64,000 bases of DNA from an uncultured Chloroflexia bacterium (GTDB taxonomy: Bacteria > Chloroflexota > Limnocylindria > Limnocylindrales > CSP1-4): NCBI GenBank assembly GCA_963794525.1, contig CAWCEC010000004.1, forward strand, positions 177,637 through 241,636, given 5' to 3'. The translations under genes and the position numbers were made by a program. Positions 24,559 to 42,264 of the stretch are shown piece by piece (within the stretch, counting starts at the first letter, position 1; each line of letters starts with the position of its first letter). Below the pieces are notes generated by a model that saw only the letters and a list, made by a program, of their open reading frames with translations, made no database searches and was not told the DNA's origin.

Positions 24559-25493
24559 GGATCTTCTTCGCAACCGACGTCCACGGCTCCGAGGTGTGCT
24601 GGCGGAAGTTCCTGAACGCCGGCGCCTTCCACAAGGCCGACGTCCTGATCATGGGCGGCGACATGACCGGCAAGGCGATGGTCCCGATCGTCCATCGAAA
24701 CGGGGGCTGGGAGGTCACGCTCCAGGAACAGCTCCACCAGCTGGCGACCGAGGACGAGCTCCTGGCGATGGAGAAGCGGATCTCCGACCGCGGCTACTAC
24801 CCGGTCCGCCTCGAGCCTGACGAGCTGGAGGCGTGGCAAGCCGACCAGTCGCTGGTCGATGCCCGCTTCAAGGACGAGATGCTGCGCAACGTCGAGCGCT
24901 GGATGGCCCTCGCCGACGAGCGCCTCGAGGGGAAGGGCATCCGCTGCATCGTGTCGCCTGCCAATGACGACATGTTCGAGATCGACCCGATCATCGCCGC
25001 CGCTCGGCTCGTCGAGCTGGGCGAGGCCAACACGATCGCCCTGGACGGCATCTCGCTCGTCTCGACCGGCTGGGCCAACCCGACACCGTGGAAGACGTTC
25101 CGCGAGCTTCCGGAAGACGAGCTGCGGGCTCGGATCGATGGTCTTGTCGCCGAGGTCCCCGACCCTCGGCGCTCCATCTTCAATTTCCATGCTCCGCCCT
25201 ACGGCTCGAACCTCGATTCGGCGCCCAAGCTCGATGCCGACCTCAAATACGTCGCGGGCGGACAGGCGCTGGTCCCTGTCGGGTCGCACGCGGTCCGGGA
25301 CGCGATCAGCGCGTACGGGCCGATGCTGTCGCTCCACGGCCACATCCACGAGGGACGGGGCGCCGTGAAGATCGGCCGCACCCTCGCCGTCAACCCCGGC
25401 AGCACCTACGAGGATGGGGTGCTCCAGGCCGCGATCGTCGACCTCGACGTCAAGAAAGGCGAGGTGAAGCGCTATCTGCTGATCAACGGCTGA
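24555..25493 (+). CDS. Calcineurin-like metallophosphoesterase (Icc-related)
   Basis: ATDVHG, GGDMTG, PANDD, NFHAPP, LHGHIHE; ATGA overlap with the nucleotidyltransferase stop. Confidence 0.88.
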   Translation: MRIFFATDVHGSEVCWRKFLNAGAFHKADVLIMGGDMTGKAMVPIVHRNGGWEVTLQEQLHQLATEDELLAMEKRISDRGYYPVRLEPDELEAWQADQSLVDARFKDEMLRNVERWMALADERLEGKGIRCIVSPANDDMFEIDPIIAAARLVELGEANTIALDGISLVSTGWANPTPWKTFRELPEDELRARIDGLVAEVPDPRRSIFNFHAPPYGSNLDSAPKLDADLKYVAGGQALVPVGSHAVRDAISAYGPMLSLHGHIHEGRGAVKIGRTLAVNPGSTYEDGVLQAAIVDLDVKKGEVKRYLLING

Positions 25494-25537
25494 CAGGACC
25501 GGTGGGGGAGGGAATCAGGAGGGAACAGGAGGGACAC

Positions 25538-27331
25538 ATGGCAACTGGCACTGCGTCCCCGTCGCTCTTCCTCAGGAATGCGACGGGACTCGTCAAGGGC
25601 TGGTCCGCGTTCGACGCGTTCACCTACTCGTTCATGTCGGTCAACCTCGTCACGCTGGGCATGTTCTACAGCCTGGCCGTGTTCGCGTACGTGCCGACGG
25701 CATCGCCCGTGCTGTCGATCCTCATCGCCGCGATCGCAGTCACGTTCCTGGCGGTGGCATATGCGGCACTGATCGCCGTCATGCCGCGTGCCGGCGGCGA
25801 CTACGTGTGGCAGACGCGGGTGCTCGACGGGCTGCCCGGCATCATCACCGGCGCGATCACCGGTGGGGTCGCGTCCTACCTGGTCGCGCAGGCCGTCGGC
25901 CTAGACTCGACGATCGCGCTCGTCGCCGGGGTGATCGGCCTCGTCGCGGGCGGCTTCATCGGAAGGATGCGTGGCGGCATCGGGTTCGTGCTCGCCGCCA
26001 CCGGCTGGTGGTTCATCCTCGCGATGTGGGCGCCGATCTACGGCGCCATCCTCAAGCTCGAGTTCTTCCAGCCGCTGGCAGCGCTCCTGGGTTCGACTGC
26101 CGGCGTCGACTTCTTCGGCTCCGACACTGGCACGCTGGTCGTGTCGCTCATCGTCATCGGCCTGACGTCGTGGCTGGTCGCCCTCGGGATGGCGGGCTAC
26201 GCGCGGATCCAGCGCGTCTGCCTGTATCTCGGGCTGATCGGCTTCGCGATCATGGCGATCCTGATGCTGGTCTCATCGCAGGACCAGTTCCGGGCCGCGT
26301 TCGACACGGCGAACATGCGGATGTTCGGGGTAGCAGGTGCGTACGACAAGACCATCGCCGACGCCGCCACGAATGACGCCTTCACCGGTTCACTCGAACC
26401 GCTCGCGATGGGCACCGACCTGACTGCGACGCTGGGCGCCGCCGTCGTGATGCTGCCCTTCATGCTGTTCTGGATCCTGTACCCGAACTGGGGCTCGACG
26501 CTCTACGGCGAGGTCCGCGGCTCGGGCGATTTCCGCAAGGTCCTCAACGGGATGCTGGGCGGGATCTGGGTCACCGCGATCCTGGCGATCGTGTTCGTAT
26601 TGCTGGCAGCCAAGACGTTCGGCTGGCTGTTCTTCAACGCCACCAACGCGAACTTCATCAATTGGTTCTATGGCTACACCACGACCGATCCGACCGTCCC
26701 GATCTGGAGCTATCCACCGCTCCTCGCCTCGTACCTGATCGACGTCCCGATCTTCCAGATCGCGATGGTCGTGCTGTTCGCGGCGTGGTTCCTCGGCTGG
26801 TCCGGGACGTTGTTCCTGTCGTCGACGCGGATGATCTTCGCGGCGGCGTTCGACCGCATCCTTCCGGAGCGGGCAGCGCAGGTGTCCGAGGGCCGCGGCG
26901 TCCCCGTGACGGCCCTGCTGTTCATCATGATCCCGGCCATCGTCGTGAGCGTGATCTACTCGTTCTCGGCGGACTTCCGGGCGCTGACATTGGACGCCAC
27001 GCTCGTGATCGCCGTCACGTTCCTCGGGAGCACCGTCGCCGCCACGATCCTGCCGTGGTGGAAACCGCAGCTCTTCGACAACTCGCCGATCGCGCGGCTG
27101 AAGATCCCGATCACGGTGGCCAGCCTGATCATCTCGGTGATCCTGGCCTACACGATCTACTTGTGGCTGACCGATGCGCTCTATGGCATCGGTGTCGGCA
27201 ACGCCAACTCGATCATCTTCCTGGGCGTGCTCTACGGGCTCGCCGCGATCGTGTATGTCGCCGCGCGGGTGTACCGCCGGTCGCAGGGCGTCGACCTAGA
27301 CGCGATCCACGCGGAGATCCCCGCGGAGTAG
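25538..27331 (+). CDS. APC-superfamily amino acid permease
   Basis: LFLRNATGLVK, MPRAGGDY, R-MIFAAAFDRILP; about 14 hydrophobic segments. Confidence 0.88.
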   Translation: MATGTASPSLFLRNATGLVKGWSAFDAFTYSFMSVNLVTLGMFYSLAVFAYVPTASPVLSILIAAIAVTFLAVAYAALIAVMPRAGGDYVWQTRVLDGLPGIITGAITGGVASYLVAQAVGLDSTIALVAGVIGLVAGGFIGRMRGGIGFVLAATGWWFILAMWAPIYGAILKLEFFQPLAALLGSTAGVDFFGSDTGTLVVSLIVIGLTSWLVALGMAGYARIQRVCLYLGLIGFAIMAILMLVSSQDQFRAAFDTANMRMFGVAGAYDKTIADAATNDAFTGSLEPLAMGTDLTATLGAAVVMLPFMLFWILYPNWGSTLYGEVRGSGDFRKVLNGMLGGIWVTAILAIVFVLLAAKTFGWLFFNATNANFINWFYGYTTTDPTVPIWSYPPLLASYLIDVPIFQIAMVVLFAAWFLGWSGTLFLSSTRMIFAAAFDRILPERAAQVSEGRGVPVTALLFIMIPAIVVSVIYSFSADFRALTLDATLVIAVTFLGSTVAATILPWWKPQLFDNSPIARLKIPITVASLIISVILAYTIYLWLTDALYGIGVGNANSIIFLGVLYGLAAIVYVAARVYRRSQGVDLDAIHAEIPAE

Positions 27332-27352
27332 CTCGAAAACCAAGCCGAGGGT

Positions 27353-27504
27353 GTCACCCACAGTGACATGTCAGCGTGGGTGACGCTTTCGGCACATCCG
27401 TGCGCGATCGATCGCCCAGACGACAGGTTTCTGCGTCCTGGGCGATCGGTCGTGCGGGTTCATGGCGATCGTGTCACTGGGACTGACATGTCAGCCTGAG
27501 TGAC
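27353..27504. repeat. Composite palindromic element: two 32-bp palindromes 120 bp apart flanking a long hairpin
   Basis: gtcacccacagTGACATGTCAgcgtgggtgac (27353-27384) and gtcactgggacTGACATGTCAgcctgagtgac (27473-27504); central stem 27402-27455. Confidence 0.8.
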
Positions 27505-27583
27505 CGGTGCCCTGGCCCTCGGCCCGCCGCGGGACAGGTATCCTCGTACGCTCGTCACCGTCAGGACGTAGGAGGAGGTCGGC

Positions 27584-30109
27584 ATGGGCGCGCTCCCGGC
27601 GCGAGCGGACGTCGTCGTCATCGGCGCGGGCATCGTCGGCAACAGCATGGCCTACCACCTGGCCGAGCAGGGCTGGCGGGACATCGTGCTAGTCGACAAG
27701 GGACCCCTGCCCAGTCCGGGCGGATCCACCGGCCATGCCTCGAACTTCATCTTCCTGACCGACCACTCGAAAGAGATGACGGCGTTCACCGTCGACAGCG
27801 CCCGCCAGTACCGCGAGCTGGATGTGTACGACGAGACCGGCGGCATCGAGGTCGCTCGGACACCTGAACGGATGGAGGAGCTCACGCGACGCCAGGCGTC
27901 GTCGACCTCGTGGGGGATCGAGGGGTCCCGGTTGCTGACCCCTGCCGAGGTCAAGGAGATGGTCCCGTTCATCGACGAGTCGGTGATCCTCGGTGGGTGG
28001 TACACGCCGGGCGTCGGCATCGTCGACTCGCTCCAGGCCGGGACCCTGATGCGCGACAAGGCCCAGAAGATGGGCGCGTTGACGGTCGCGGCGGGCGTCG
28101 AGGTCACCGGCATCGACGTGGTCGACGGGCAGGTCCGCGGCGTGCGCACGGACCAGGGTGACATCGCCGCCGATACGGTCGTCATCGCGTGCGGCGTGTG
28201 GAGCCCGCGGATCGCCCGGATGGCCGGGGCGTCGATCCCGTTGACGCCGGCGGTCCACCAGATGATCGACATCGGCCCGGTGCCCCAGTTCGAGCACACG
28301 ACCAAGGAGGTCGGCTTCCCGATCGTCCGCGACATGGACACCAACATGTACGAGCGCCAGCACGGCACCGGCTTCGAGGTCGGCTCGTACGCCCACCGGC
28401 CGATCCTGATGGACGCCGACGACATCCCGTCGATCGAGGCCTCGGCCCTGTCGCCGACGATGTTGCCGTTCACCCAGGAGGACTTCGACCCGCAGCTCGA
28501 GGATGCGCTCGAGCTGTTCCCCGAGATCGTCGGCGACGAATCCGTTGGCGTGAAGCTGGCGATCAACGGCCTGCTCGCATTGACGCCCGACGGCAACCCG
28601 ATCATCGGCGAGACCCCCGAGGTGAAGGGCCTCTGGTCCGCGGCCGCGATCTGGATCAAGGAAGCGCCAGGGATCGCCAAGGCGATCGCCGAGTGGATGA
28701 CCACAGGCGAACCGGAGATCGACCCGCACGGATCGGACATCGCCCGCTTCTATGACCATCACAAGACCGCGCAACACATCGCGGCGCGGGCCAGCGAGGG
28801 GTTCAACAAGACCTACGGCATCGTCCACCCGATGGAGCAGTGGGCGTCGAACCGGCCCATCCGGCTGTCGCCGGCCTACGACCGACATGTCGAGCTGGGA
28901 GCCGAGTTCTTCGAGGCGGCGGGCTGGGAACGGCCGTACTGGTACGGCACGAACGAGGGGCTTCTCGGCGAGTACGGCGATCGGGTGATGCCGCGTGAGG
29001 CCGAATGGGAATTGCGCTGGTGGTCGCCGATCATCAACGCGGAACACCTCGCGATGCGCGATCGGGCCGGTCTCGTCGACCTGTCGGCGTTCGCGATCTT
29101 CGACATCAGCGGGCCCGGGGCGCTCGCCGCGCTGGAACGGCTCTGCGTCAATCGCGTCGACGTGGCGCCGGGCCGGACGGTCTACACGCCGCTGCTCAAC
29201 TCGGCGGGCGGCATCCTGGCCGACCTGACCGTGATGCGCCTGGCCCATGACCGCTTCCGGGTCGTGACGGGCGGCGGCATGGGGATGCGCGACCGCAAGA
29301 TCTTCCAGGACGCGATGCCAGCCGACGGTACCGCGCACCTGCACGACGTGACCAACGCGTTCACGACGTTCGGGCTGTGGGGCCCGCGGGCACGCGACAT
29401 CCTCGGCGTGGCCGCCGACGGCGGCGCGGACATCAGCCACAAGGGCTTCCCGTTCCTGACGTCCAAGACCGTCGAGATCGACGGCGTCCGGACACTCGCG
29501 TCACGCATCAGCTACGTCGGCGAGCTGGGTTGGGAGATCTACGTCCCGATCGAGCAGGGGTTACGTGTCTGGGACGCGCTGTGGCGGGCCGGCCAACCGC
29601 ACGGGCTCGTGCCGGTCGGGATCGGCACGTACGCCGTGACCTCGCGGCTGGAGAAGGGCTACCGGGCGCATGGCGCCGAGCTCGAGCTCGATTTCGATCT
29701 CGTCGAGGCCGGCATGGCGCGACCGACGGTGAAGGACGACGACTTCGTCGGGCGCGAGGCCTATCTGCGGAAGCGCGACGAATCGCCCGTGGCGATCCTG
29801 TGCACGTTGACCGTCGAGGACCACACTTCGAAGAAGGGCGTCAAGCGCTTCATGCTCGGCCGCGAGCCGATCCTGGCGGAGGACGGCAGCCCGCTGGTCG
29901 ATGCGAAGGGCCGCCGCTCGTACGTGACGAGCGCGGGATCCGGCCCGTCGGTCGGGAAACATCTGCTGATGTCGTATCTGCCACCGGAGCAGGCGGTCGA
30001 GGGCACCAAGCTCCTCGTGGAGTACTTCGGCGAGCGCTATCCCGTGACCGTGGCCGTCGCAGGCAGCACGCCGCTGTTCGACGCCGAGAACGACCGGATC
30101 CGGAGCTGA
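27584..30109 (+). CDS. GcvT-domain FAD-dependent oxidoreductase (dimethylglycine/sarcosine dehydrogenase family), paralog 2
   Basis: VIGAGIVG, GGSTGHA, LTPDG, GWERP, ISYVGELGWE, SRLEKGYR; GGAGGAGG RBS. Confidence 0.92.
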   Translation: MGALPARADVVVIGAGIVGNSMAYHLAEQGWRDIVLVDKGPLPSPGGSTGHASNFIFLTDHSKEMTAFTVDSARQYRELDVYDETGGIEVARTPERMEELTRRQASSTSWGIEGSRLLTPAEVKEMVPFIDESVILGGWYTPGVGIVDSLQAGTLMRDKAQKMGALTVAAGVEVTGIDVVDGQVRGVRTDQGDIAADTVVIACGVWSPRIARMAGASIPLTPAVHQMIDIGPVPQFEHTTKEVGFPIVRDMDTNMYERQHGTGFEVGSYAHRPILMDADDIPSIEASALSPTMLPFTQEDFDPQLEDALELFPEIVGDESVGVKLAINGLLALTPDGNPIIGETPEVKGLWSAAAIWIKEAPGIAKAIAEWMTTGEPEIDPHGSDIARFYDHHKTAQHIAARASEGFNKTYGIVHPMEQWASNRPIRLSPAYDRHVELGAEFFEAAGWERPYWYGTNEGLLGEYGDRVMPREAEWELRWWSPIINAEHLAMRDRAGLVDLSAFAIFDISGPGALAALERLCVNRVDVAPGRTVYTPLLNSAGGILADLTVMRLAHDRFRVVTGGGMGMRDRKIFQDAMPADGTAHLHDVTNAFTTFGLWGPRARDILGVAADGGADISHKGFPFLTSKTVEIDGVRTLASRISYVGELGWEIYVPIEQGLRVWDALWRAGQPHGLVPVGIGTYAVTSRLEKGYRAHGAELELDFDLVEAGMARPTVKDDDFVGREAYLRKRDESPVAILCTLTVEDHTSKKGVKRFMLGREPILAEDGSPLVDAKGRRSYVTSAGSGPSVGKHLLMSYLPPEQAVEGTKLLVEYFGERYPVTVAVAGSTPLFDAENDRIRS

Positions 30110-30119
30110 TCGAGGGCCG

Positions 30120-30884
30120 ATGCGCATCCTCGTCCTGGTCAAGCGCGTTCCCGCGACCGGCGGACGGATCGTCCTGACCGAGGATGGCCGAGCGATCGAC
30201 ACGCGCTTCCTCGGGTTCGTCGTCAGCCCCCACGAGGAATGCGCTGAGGAGGAGGCCGTCCGCCTGATCGAGGCGAACGGCGGCGAGTCGGTCGTCCTGA
30301 CGCTCGGCGCGCCGGAGGCCGCCGACCAACTGCGCGATGCGATGGCGATCGGCATCGACCGCGCGGTCCTGCTCGAGACCGACGGGTCGGACTGGGATCC
30401 ATTCGCGACCGCGGCGGCGATCACCGACGCGGTCCGTGGTCTGGAGGCGGCCCATGGGCCGTTCGACCTCATCCTCGTCGGCAACGAGTCGGCCGATTCG
30501 GGCGGGTACCAGGTGGGCATCCGGCTGGCCGTCGACCTCGATCGACCGATCGCCACGGGGATCAAGGCGCTCGACATCAGCGATGGCGTCGCGACTGCTC
30601 GTCGCCAGGTCGCGGGTGGTGCCGACGTGTTCGAGCTCCCGCTGCCGGCGGTCGTCGGCGTCCGCGAGGGCATCAACCTGCCCCGCTACCCGTCCGTGCC
30701 GGGGCGGTTGCGGGCGAAGAAGAAGGACATCGAGCGCATCGTCCCGGAGCGTCGTCCGGGCGGCCCGACCCTCGAGCGCCTCCAGCTGCCGGTCGAGAAG
30801 GAGCAGCACGTCGAGATCCTCGGGACCGGTCCGGAGGCGGCGCCCCGGGTGGTGGCGCTGCTGCGCGAGCTGGGCGTCCTGTGA
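30120..30884 (+). CDS. etfB: Electron transfer flavoprotein beta subunit
   Basis: VLVKRVP, AMAIGID-RA, GNESAD, INLPRYP. Confidence 0.9.
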   Translation: MRILVLVKRVPATGGRIVLTEDGRAIDTRFLGFVVSPHEECAEEEAVRLIEANGGESVVLTLGAPEAADQLRDAMAIGIDRAVLLETDGSDWDPFATAAAITDAVRGLEAAHGPFDLILVGNESADSGGYQVGIRLAVDLDRPIATGIKALDISDGVATARRQVAGGADVFELPLPAVVGVREGINLPRYPSVPGRLRAKKKDIERIVPERRPGGPTLERLQLPVEKEQHVEILGTGPEAAPRVVALLRELGVL

Positions 30885-31882
30885 GCGGCGTCCTCGTCCT
30901 GGTCGAGCTGGCCGGCGACGCGCCCGACCGGCTGAGCGCCGAGGCGCTGGGTGTCGCGCGCGGTGTGGCGGATGCGCTCAGGGGCGCGGTCCACGCGGTG
31001 GTCGTCGCCGGGTCGGGCGACGCCGACGCCGCTGCGTCCGCCGCGCCCGCCCTCGGGTCGTACGGCGTGACAACGGTGCACCTCGCATCGAGCGACCGGC
31101 TCGAGGCCTACGCGCCGGCCGCCTGGGCCGCGGCAGTCGAGGGTGTCGTATCCAGCGGCTCGTACGATGCGGTCCTCGCCTCGGCTGGCGAGCGGGCGAC
31201 GGAGATCCTGGCCCATGTCGCCGCCCGCATGGGCATACCCATGGCGGCCAACGTCATCTCGATCGAGCCGGGTGAGCGCTGGCGGCTCACCCGACAGCGC
31301 TGGGCAGGGAGCCTGCTCGAAGAGGCATGGCTCGACGGGACGCCTCGGCTGTTCACCGTTGCCGCCCATGCCGTCCCGGCGATGGAGCCGTCCGCCTCGT
31401 CGGCACCCGCGGAGGTGGTCCGCGTCGAGCCGGCGATCAGCGATGCCGACCTGCGCGCGCGCGTGGTCGGCCACGACGTCGCCGGTGGCGCCGGCGTCTC
31501 CCTGTCCGACGCCAAGGTCGTGGTCGGTGGGGGGCGTGGCATGGGCAGCGCTGACGCCTTCGCGATGCTCGACGAGCTGGCCGCTGAACTCGGCGCGGCT
31601 GTCGGCGTCTCCCGCGTCGCGACGAGCCTCGGCTGGCGGCCGCACGCCCAGCAGATCGGCCAGACCGGCACGCGGATCGCCCCGGATCTCTACATCGCGT
31701 GCGGGATCAGCGGCGCGATCCAGCATATCGTGGGCGCCAAGGCGGCCAAGCGGATCCTGGTGATCAACTCCGACCAGGACGCCCCGATCTTCCGGCGGGC
31801 GAGCTACGCGGTCGTGGGTGACGTCCACGCCGTGGTCCCGGCTATCACGGCCGAGATCCGCCGGGCCCGTAGCGGAGGTTGA
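30881..31882 (+). CDS. etfA: Electron transfer flavoprotein alpha subunit
   Basis: VVGGGRG, AVGVSR, QIGQTG, LYIACGISGAIQH, INSDQDAPIF. Confidence 0.93.
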   Translation: MSGVLVLVELAGDAPDRLSAEALGVARGVADALRGAVHAVVVAGSGDADAAASAAPALGSYGVTTVHLASSDRLEAYAPAAWAAAVEGVVSSGSYDAVLASAGERATEILAHVAARMGIPMAANVISIEPGERWRLTRQRWAGSLLEEAWLDGTPRLFTVAAHAVPAMEPSASSAPAEVVRVEPAISDADLRARVVGHDVAGGAGVSLSDAKVVVGGGRGMGSADAFAMLDELAAELGAAVGVSRVATSLGWRPHAQQIGQTGTRIAPDLYIACGISGAIQHIVGAKAAKRILVINSDQDAPIFRRASYAVVGDVHAVVPAITAEIRRARSGG

Positions 31883-41502: not shown

Positions 41503-42264
41503 ATGGCGTCCGACCCCAACGCGCCCCGCTCACGACGAGCACTCCTGACCGCAGCGGCCGGTGGTGCGGCGGCTATGGCGGCCTCGGCGGCGATGCCGCT
41601 GACAGCTGTCGCCGCGGATCCGAACGACGTCGTCAAGAACGTCGACAATCCCACGACCGCCGAAACGTCGATCACCCAAGCGACCGCTGGCTTCATCGCC
41701 TTCAAGGCGAGCACGACGAATCCCGATCGTGCCGGCCTCGTCGGTTCGACTGGCGACGAAACCGACAGCTTCGAGGACAACACAACGTTCACCGGCGTCT
41801 ACGGCTGGAGCCAGGCCGACGCCACGAACGGCGCGGGCTCCGGCGTCTGGGGTGACAGCCCCGACACCGGCGTCGTCGGGACGGGCTCGGTCGGCGTGCT
41901 CGGGCTCGGCGGTGTCGGCGTGTGGGGCGACGGCAGTGGTGCGCCCGGCGTCATCGGCGACACCGACACCTCGACGATCGCTGGCGTGCTCGCCCGGGGC
42001 GTAAGCGCGACGGGGCTCGCCCTATCGGTCATCGGCAAAGCGAAGTTCAGCCGGTCCGGCAGGACGACGATCGGCGCTGGCCGCTCCACGCTTACCGTGT
42101 CGCTGAACGGCGTCACGTCGGGCAGCAAGGTCTTCGCCGTGTTGCACTCCAACCGATCCGGCCGCTATGTCCGTGCCGTCGTGCCGACGACCAACAGGTT
42201 CACCGTCTATCTCAACACTACGGTCACCTCGGCGTCGTTCGTCGCCTGGTTCGTGCTCGACTGA
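41503..42264 (+). CDS. Tat-exported Gly/Thr/Val-rich protein
   Basis: SRRALL twin-arginine signal with an AxA cleavage site; repeats of GV(Y/W/L/V)G; aromatic C-terminus FVAWFVLD; GGAGGG RBS. Confidence 0.7.
   Translation: MASDPNAPRSRRALLTAAAGGAAAMAASAAMPLTAVAADPNDVVKNVDNPTTAETSITQATAGFIAFKASTTNPDRAGLVGSTGDETDSFEDNTTFTGVYGWSQADATNGAGSGVWGDSPDTGVVGTGSVGVLGLGGVGVWGDGSGAPGVIGDTDTSTIAGVLARGVSATGLALSVIGKAKFSRSGRTTIGAGRSTLTVSLNGVTSGSKVFAVLHSNRSGRYVRAVVPTTNRFTVYLNTTVTSASFVAWFVLD

Follow-up and report, generated by a model that had tools for sequence, protein, structure and literature searches.

What is the symmetric 152-bp element that separates an amino-acid permease gene from a dehydrogenase-ETF operon in the genome of an uncultured soil bacterium of the Chloroflexota? 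The element, here called loc1, occupies positions 27353-27504 of a stretch of 64,000 nucleotides, which is referred to below as the window. A sequence-only reading of the window had described it as two palindromes enclosing a long hairpin and had offered three explanations, namely a REP/REPIN-like non-autonomous repeat, a looped double operator for the downstream operon, or a structured RNA. Among known systems, the closest to the element are the REPIN-RAYT systems, in which REP doublets are associated with REP-associated tyrosine transposases (PMC3116915, PMC3337134, bioRxiv 10.1101/2021.07.10.451892). Here we follow loc1 from its anatomy to its relatives in the same genome, in sister genomes and beside one particular gene, and weigh these explanations against each other.

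Results

Two bipartite arms enclose the core of loc1

The two palindromes proved to be near-palindromes whose starts lie exactly 120 bp apart. As read off the sequence, Watson-Crick pairing holds at 14 of 16 positions in the 32-bp left arm, GTCACCCACAGTGACATGTCAGCGTGGGTGAC (27353-27384), and at 13 of 16 in the 32-bp right arm, GTCACTGGGACTGACATGTCAGCCTGAGTGAC (27473-27504). The arms have the form GTCAC-N5-GTGAC-AT-GTCAS-N5-GTGAC, which can be described either as four half-sites or as two abutting 17-bp sites. In the left arm, the outer site is TGTCAC-N5-GTGACA (27352-27368) and the inner site is ATGTCAG-N5-GTGAC (27368-27384), the latter aligning with the single arm of other subfamilies; in the right arm, the inner site spans 27473-27489 and the outer site 27488-27504. 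Inner arm, core and inner arm together form a 122-nt unit (27368-27489) that is common to every subfamily and is matched by the family profile R1 with 109 bits (E = 5e-24). The 88-bp core between the arms (27385-27472) carries partly conserved blocks in alignments, which are CGCCCAG, CAG, TGGGCGATCGG and GC; arms, unit and core are given here without strand. Measured on the sequence, the centers of the inner sites are 105 bp apart and those of the outer sites 136 bp apart, which at 10.5 bp per turn corresponds to 10.0 and 13.0 helical turns.

On the + strand, the core contains a central 18-bp stem followed by a bulged inner stem and a GTTT loop (27402-27455). The stem itself (27402-27419 with 27438-27455) was found as originally described, two G-T pairs being its sole departures from Watson-Crick pairing. 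The left palindrome can also be lengthened to 50 bp, as GCCGAGGG (27344-27351) pairs with GCTTTCGGC (27385-27393), and another CCCTCGGC lies to the right of loc1 at 27513-27521.

loc1 is one of about 15 copies of a fixed-length repeat

In the 3.17-Mb genome (69.5% G+C), the 10-mer TGACATGTCA was counted six times, against about 0.5 occurrences that we estimate for chance, and the reversed pattern, used as a control in the same genome, gave no match. All six occurrences form pairs 120-121 bp apart and lie inside three copies of one element, 152 or 153 bp long: loc1 itself, loc2 (contig C4, 339765-339917) and loc3 (contig C6, 237003-237154). Homology among the three stops exactly at the outer GTCAC/GTGAC. 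Profile searches gave about 15 intergenic copies in the genome, and loc1 is thus not unique. Across 31 copies from many genomes, the unit is 122-127 nt long, and 122-125 nt in 30 of them; it consists of a bipartite arm, a partly conserved core of about 90 nt and the same arm inverted. The subfamily of loc1 has an extra outer site that doubles each arm, giving the 32-bp palindromes and the 152-nt element. A copy at C4:29574 has GTCGC/GCGAC in all eight half-sites, and several copies are single-armed with non-palindromic arms, for example TGTCAG-N5-GGCAC ... GTGCC-N5-CTGACA. Units can also form arm-core-arm-core arrays, because a partial third core (GCTCGCGTGATGAACGGGCACGC) lies beside the C4:29574 copy at C4:29500-29574 and two units at C2:171603-171856 have one arm in common.

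The copies are found between convergent, co-directional or divergent genes of unrelated functions, and most of them follow gene 3' ends. Going by the ORFs and stop codons on either side, convergent gene ends enclose at least four of them, and others sit between co-directional genes; GC3-based gene calling missed several genes, and these contexts were partly judged from stop and start codons in alignments. A weak R1 match elsewhere in the window (41627-41759) falls inside a coding frame and looks like chance.

A search for the exact pattern in relatives was null because half-sites differ between species; the species-specific element that this result had suggested was corrected by the profile searches. 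When 185,579 genomes were scanned for TGACATGTCA-N100-120-TGACATGTCA, nearly all of the 54 matches were due to chance, and real relatives were present only in L055 and L017. A different pair, with AATGACATGTCATT palindromes 121 bp apart, was seen in an Acidimicrobiales MAG of an unrelated phylum (L022:2568-2698). It has the same 10-mer core and spacing with other flanks, and could be either chance or an analogous two-site module.

Sister genomes have filled and empty sites

Six copies with their flanks were compared by BLAST with eight congeners, and five of the copies have empty orthologous sites in sister genomes. The loc3 copy is present in the genome studied here (G000) and absent from G021, G044, G053, G055 and G056. 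The same holds for the copy at C3:453061, which is absent from G021 and G024, and for that at C6:194250, absent from G021 and G053. Two copies are more widely held: that at C2:142119 is present in G000, G021 and G053 and absent from G024, G055 and G056, and that at C4:29574 is present in G000, G021 and G024 and absent from G053 and G055. At loc3, the anchors on both sides are 234 nt apart in the filled site and 45 nt apart in the empty-site congeners, and the 7-bp direct repeat GATGCGG on either side of the insert leaves the start codon of the neighboring gene intact. No target duplication was discernible at the four other filled/empty sites or at 18 copies from the congener G024.

Copies within one and the same genome are old, with cores that are 60-78% identical, and the number of R1 matches per congeneric genome ranges from 0 to 50 with both strands counted. 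The 18 units fetched from G024 average 61% identity, and 15 of them have doubled GTCGC-type arms that are kept similar. The most similar copies in G024 are physical neighbors, including a pair that brackets the gene described below, so that copies seem to have spread of late by local duplication or gene conversion rather than by long-range jumps. Of the three early explanations, the REP/REPIN-like non-autonomous repeat is the best supported, by the dispersed, sharply bounded copies and their filled and empty sites, but the enzyme gene to be expected is absent: a search for Y1_Tnp (PF01797; RAYT/IS200) found no match in the genome, which is 80% complete, whereas the same search was positive in 6 of 14 control genomes.

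A gene for an HTH-nuclease protein accompanies the family

loc2 begins 24 bp past the stop codon of a gene, P0001 (C4:338968-339738 of the same genome), whose 257-aa product combines an XRE-HTH (HTH_3) and a PD-(D/E)xK-like domain. In its C-terminal domain, E104, E106, D117, E132-x-K134 and Q146xxxY150 are invariant, a PD-(D/E)xK nuclease signature of RecB/Cas4 type with intact catalytic residues. Family matches of this domain are weak (NucS_C, YraN and PDDEXK families). In a confident AlphaFold model (mean pLDDT 86), the predicted C-terminal domain resembles the R2-element restriction-like endonuclease and AF1548, and the predicted N-terminal domain agrees with the HTH folds of P22 c2, 434 Cro and restriction-modification C-proteins at an rmsd of about 1 Å. 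Searches with P0001 of defense-system and phage family libraries, and of the sequences of solved structures, matched the HTH domain alone. The source names attached to homologs assign the organism to the Chloroflexota, Candidatus Limnocylindrales.

The association of gene and element is not confined to loc2. P0001 orthologs with identities as low as 56% retain an element directly after the stop codon, also when a different gene follows, and in many metagenome loci and congeners the gene has copies on one side or on both. Among 43 gene loci with enough flank, 18 have an element within 400 bp, and at the other 25 the same profile found none; of the 16 loci whose protein shares 55% identity or more with P0001, 11 have an element within this distance. 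Where a copy adjoins the gene, it is usually downstream of the stop codon. Gene order at the P0001 locus is kept in orthologs (VIT1, M23 peptidase, the gene, HD-domain gene, CAP and PafBC-like genes), as is that at the locus of a paralog on contig C2 (MscS, the gene, IclR). In 41 congeners, gene and element occur together in 22 and are both missing in 10, with the gene alone in 2 and the element alone in 7 (Fisher p = 0.001, in a test that ignores phylogeny and incomplete assemblies and counts a close gene at E < 1e-60 as present); most genomes in the gene-only and element-only groups are incomplete assemblies. Among 201 sampled Chloroflexota genomes, gene (E <= 1e-40) and element were found only in the two genomes that belong to the genus studied here, and both are absent from the other 199.

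Of the paralogs in the genome, three are close (about 50% identical) and five are distant. Three of its paralogs differ in the arms of the element beside them, which belong to the GTCAC, the TGTCAG/GGCAC and the GACCT/GGTCAAA type. A single-armed copy (ATGTCAGGCTGAGGCAC ... GTGCCTGGGGCTGACAT) comes after the C2 paralog, and one with GACCT/GGTCAAA arms comes before the second C4 paralog. In other lineages the arms are GGTAC-N5-GTACC, GTTCC-N5-GGAAC or of TGAAC type, and the core is still recognizable. Since the neighboring arms differ between paralogs and between lineages, the arms vary with the adjacent protein while core and length stay constant. We are highly confident that loc1 belongs to a bounded, fixed-length family of dispersed repeats, and that the arms of this family correspond to the HTH-nuclease gene beside them and co-vary with it.

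Several further features of these loci were seen. The C2 paralog (C2:152863-153618; G000 C2:151947-154609 compared with L068:2962-5921) is 58% identical between the two genomes, where its neighbors are 80% and 92.5% identical; it is either unusually fast-evolving or was replaced by a paralog, and the arms differ between the two genomes too. A PafBC-like pair or fusion (HTH_PafC, WYL, WCX) at L005:8209-10431 (C4 of G000, about 2.3 kb from loc2) keeps its synteny with the P0001 locus, as do an HD-domain gene and a CAP-domain gene. A PafBC/RecA-NDp motif, considered for this reason near loc2, was dropped, as no -10 element stands at the required distance. A conserved GCTTGACT is located about 7-15 nt before the predicted starts of three paralogs (C4:338940-338968, C2:152835-152863 and C4:440460-440490), which points either to a common promoter giving leaderless or short-leader transcripts or to wrongly assigned start codons. 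At L073, L083, L085 and L068, G+C-rich tandem arrays with units such as GGGCGCGGGCGTGAGGCCCGGGCGGTGCC come after the element, about 100-350 bp downstream of the gene. The gene bracketed by two elements in G024 (C3:1053853-1054615) matches in two pieces (residues 2-183 and 186-255) and may be frameshifted or interrupted.

loc1 is a passenger at a synteny break

The ORF of the upstream amino-acid permease (AA_permease_2; 25088-27331, + strand), whose true start is probably further downstream, stops 22 bp before loc1. A dimethylglycine/sarcosine-dehydrogenase-like gene (DAO, FAO_M and GCV_T; 27584-30109, + strand) starts 80 bp past loc1 and is followed by the genes for ETF beta (30120-30884) and ETF alpha (30881-31882). 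In six congeners with 91-95% identical dehydrogenase N-termini, the upstream gene is instead a divergent aldehyde-dehydrogenase-like gene, named from reading its translation, and neither the permease gene nor the element was found in the region upstream of their dehydrogenase. Homology resumes about 35 bp to the right of loc1 in a GGTATCCTC block conserved in the six congeners; it begins at TATCCT (27539-27544, + strand), a -10-like hexamer that may serve as a promoter. Upstream of the dehydrogenase, the congeners (L151-L156) have GGTCAAGG, about 25 nt and GGGTATCCTC, to be compared with window positions of about 27505-27545. With a different upstream gene in the relatives and synteny broken at loc1, a clean empty-site comparison failed for this copy. 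Because the six congeners carry the operon without permease or element, loc1 marks a rearrangement boundary and not a conserved operon control site; and because the genome retains only the GGTATCCTC part, the upstream control region of the operon was replaced at the rearrangement.

These comparisons divide the proposal of a looped double operator for the dehydrogenase-ETF operon into two parts. Its geometry stands, in that the arms look like protein sites in helical phase. The dedicated operator does not, because copies are many and dispersed, several of them lie between convergent ends, and the operon of the relatives is without the element. loc1 is a passenger at a synteny break rather than a dedicated operator, and it gives no evidence of special regulation of the dimethylglycine-dehydrogenase/ETF operon. 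Two known kinds of site were also considered for the arms. An XRE-type promoter operator agrees with them in half-site geometry but not in location, which would be the promoters of a coherent regulon and is here among unrelated neighbors and at convergent or co-directional ends. A BldD-box or matS-like site (TNAC-N5-GTNA; GTGACRNYGTCAC) was dropped, as the organism belongs to the Chloroflexota and the partner protein is different.

The main rival to mobility is a wider form of host use. The protein with HTH and nuclease fold would be a transcription factor or nucleoid organizer, and the elements would be non-mobile binding modules, that is, looped operators or architectural sites spread by ordinary duplication and recombination; they would autoregulate the gene of the protein and influence the genes next to them, including the dehydrogenase-ETF operon 80 bp downstream of loc1. 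The arms do have an operator-like 5-N5-5 geometry in helical phase, their conservation while the cores drift suggests continuing selection on binding, and the nearest copies are local duplicates. Copies abut the gene in the manner of autoregulatory sites, but on the side of its stop codon in the usual case. Those at loc1, loc3 and C6:194260 are just upstream of gene starts. Against this explanation stand the convergent and co-directional placements described above and the lack of a common function among the neighboring genes. The empty orthologous sites of sister species, together with the element-free dehydrogenase operon of six close congeners, also count against it, as do the invariant catalytic residues of the nuclease, which would be superfluous in a pure regulator. 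We regard it as unlikely; the explanations by RNA and by a classical MITE are weaker.

The arm pattern points to duplex DNA sites rather than to a folded strand

Whether the element acts as a folded strand was judged from pairing across the family. In the half-site columns, left and right arms are 83-100% complementary, with many double changes, and in the arm spacer (columns 9-11) they are 34-45% complementary, compared with 20-47% in slid-register controls. The arms consist of blocks of 5/6 bp - N4/5 - 5/6 bp, in which inverted, co-varying half-sites lie one helical turn apart. RNAalifold applied to 29 diverse units kept 12 pairs, all of them between arm half-sites. Imposing the hairpin of loc1 on the family left the central helix 56% paired, against 28-39% in slid controls. 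Folding of the central region gave z = -6.1 at loc1, -1.2 at loc3 and +0.1 at loc2, the last no better than shuffles; the central hairpin is strong only at loc1.

A structured RNA would be a transcribed three-hairpin terminator, stabilizer or processing site at gene 3' ends, roles that REP elements can have, or a small-RNA family; the permease transcript would then be divided from that of the dehydrogenase at loc1. The fold of loc1 itself is very strong on the + strand: the central 88 nt have a folding energy of -53 kcal/mol, against -41 kcal/mol on the - strand, and the intergenic region reaches z = -6.8 (+ strand) and -4.8 (- strand) relative to shuffled sequences. Furthermore, most copies follow gene 3' ends, and loc1 has six non-Watson-Crick pairs, all of them G-T and none A-C when read on the strand of both flanking genes. 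This last observation, from which folding of the + strand had been proposed, is correct for loc1 but does not extend to the family, in which 81 G-T cells stand against 124 A-C cells. The partly paired central helix, absent at loc2, the non-complementary spacers and the restriction of the RNAalifold pairs to arm half-sites likewise speak against RNA. The best Rfam matches reached about 21-24 bits, where the gathering scores are 40-90 bits, and no intrinsic terminator (G+C-rich hairpin with a T-run) or promoter-like site was found in 27200-27700. We consider this explanation decidedly improbable. As the genes on both sides are co-directional and loc1 is on their sense strand, its perfect + strand hairpin may be a local refinement.

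Co-varying half-sites, spacers that do not pair, and a spacing of 10 and 13 turns therefore argue for protein recognition of duplex bipartite sites rather than for an RNA or single-strand fold. The alignments fit arms that are putative protein sites on duplex DNA, present at both ends and in helical phase.

A classical MITE would be derived from an IS by deletion and be mobilized in trans by a DDE or HUH transposase from another locus, its HTH-nuclease neighbor being a coincidence. Such an origin is scarcely credible. In its favor are the inverted repeats at the ends, a length below about 300 bp, intergenic dispersal and the one 7-bp flanking duplication. Against it, the genome has no Y1 (IS200/RAYT) transposase, and nothing longer with the same arms was found (every TGACATGTCA lies inside the three 152-bp copies, and all profile matches are of unit length); HTH-nuclease adjacency recurs across orthologs and paralogs with arms changing to match, and gene and element have the same narrow taxonomic range.

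Discussion

A repeat family with a putative nuclease partner

The reading that we favor, with moderate confidence, is a lineage-specific, REPIN/RAYT-like family of fixed-length repeats partnered with an unrelated XRE-HTH / PD-(D/E)xK nuclease, which would mobilize them. Each arm would be a bipartite duplex-DNA site with the geometry of an HTH-dimer operator, read by the HTH of the cognate protein; for the half-sites GTCRC/GYGAC of the loc1 subfamily, the cognate gene would be P0001. Because the arms are 10 and 13 turns apart, proteins bound at both ends would lie on one face of the helix, where synapsis would be possible. Once the bound proteins were brought together, the nuclease domain would nick or cut at or near the ends of the element, and cutting would allow the unit to be copied or relocated into short intergenic regions, mostly at gene 3' ends. 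By analogy with REPIN/RAYT, we give roughly even chances to the proposal that a P0001-type nuclease binds the arms and mobilizes or maintains the copies. The strong conservation of arms at dispersed copies could also reflect their use by the host as regulatory or architectural sites. A more far-reaching possibility, which we put forward only tentatively, is that the family is a second, independently evolved and long-lived repeat-plus-enzyme replicator, in which an HTH-guided PD-(D/E)xK nuclease synapses the ends and cuts, copies or moves the unit, and in which recognition helix and arms co-diversify per paralog.

Comparison with known repeats and operators

The likeness to REPIN-RAYT systems covers several levels. 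In both cases, short palindromic repeats are scattered in intergenic DNA, mostly at gene 3' ends, and abut a chromosomal enzyme gene; each gene paralog has its own repeat variant and its conserved chromosomal neighborhood; copy number varies between related genomes without regular target duplication; and a dispersed repeat population, here of about 15 copies, coexists with a gene at a stable chromosomal site. Unlike in REPIN-RAYT systems, the enzyme is an XRE-HTH + PD-(D/E)xK protein instead of an HUH/Y1 transposase, for which no Y1_Tnp gene is present, and the ends, which start with YGTC, look like bipartite duplex sites instead of GTAG-tagged single-strand hairpins. The long single-strand hairpin is replaced by an unpaired arm spacer and a central helix that is 56% paired, and the repeats differ further in the strictly fixed length of the unit, in its partly conserved core of 90 nt and in their low copy number (tens).

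Other known systems resemble single aspects of the family. Operators of XRE-family repressors are likewise inverted-repeat sites of 15-17 bp with a variable center, arranged in tandem and in helical phase, but here there are about 15 dispersed modules, often away from promoters, and a protein with an intact nuclease motif. Correia elements of Neisseria are MITEs of about 100-155 bp with 26-bp terminal inverted repeats, a central IHF site and TA target duplications; we know of no cognate gene adjacent to them. They are similar in size, in having terminal inverted repeats around a central region, in their intergenic sites and in possible effects on neighboring transcripts, and differ in that the arms described here co-vary with a neighboring nuclease gene.

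[quoted passage not shown] 2013, PMC3733652). As in those palindromic repeats, the ends of our elements start with YGTC and finish with GACR, and the copies are mostly located between convergent or co-directional genes, sometimes in groups. However, a CGTC-tagged REP has an unpaired tag, an 8-9-bp stem, a 4-5-nt loop and a CCA tail (PMC3733652), whereas YGTC is here paired within a half-site of 6 bp and a core of 90 nt lies between two arms, so that the element is not a CGTC-tagged REP by the definition of that family. In the literature that we searched, no comparable pairing of a repeat with a nuclease was found, the closest cases being REPIN-RAYT (PMC3116915) and the orphan CGTC REPs (PMC3733652).

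Implications for palindromic repeats

REPIN-RAYT is the only vertically inherited bacterial repeat-enzyme partnership that we found described in the same literature, and whole superfamilies of palindromic repeats are still without a mobilizing enzyme (PMC3733652). If the reading favored here is true, such a partnership is built on an unrelated nuclease, and the repeat-enzyme lifestyle would have evolved more than once. The more far-reaching possibility raised above would also mean a transposition-like mechanism without DDE, HUH, serine or tyrosine chemistry, and would set a precedent for the spread of palindromic repeats that have no known transposase, such as the CGTC-type REPs. A partnership of a small protein with defined 17-32-bp sites would offer a directly testable system, and the arm types GTCAC, GTCGC, TGTCAG/GGCAC, GGTAC and GTTCC form a natural series for studying the co-evolution of HTH proteins with their DNA sites.
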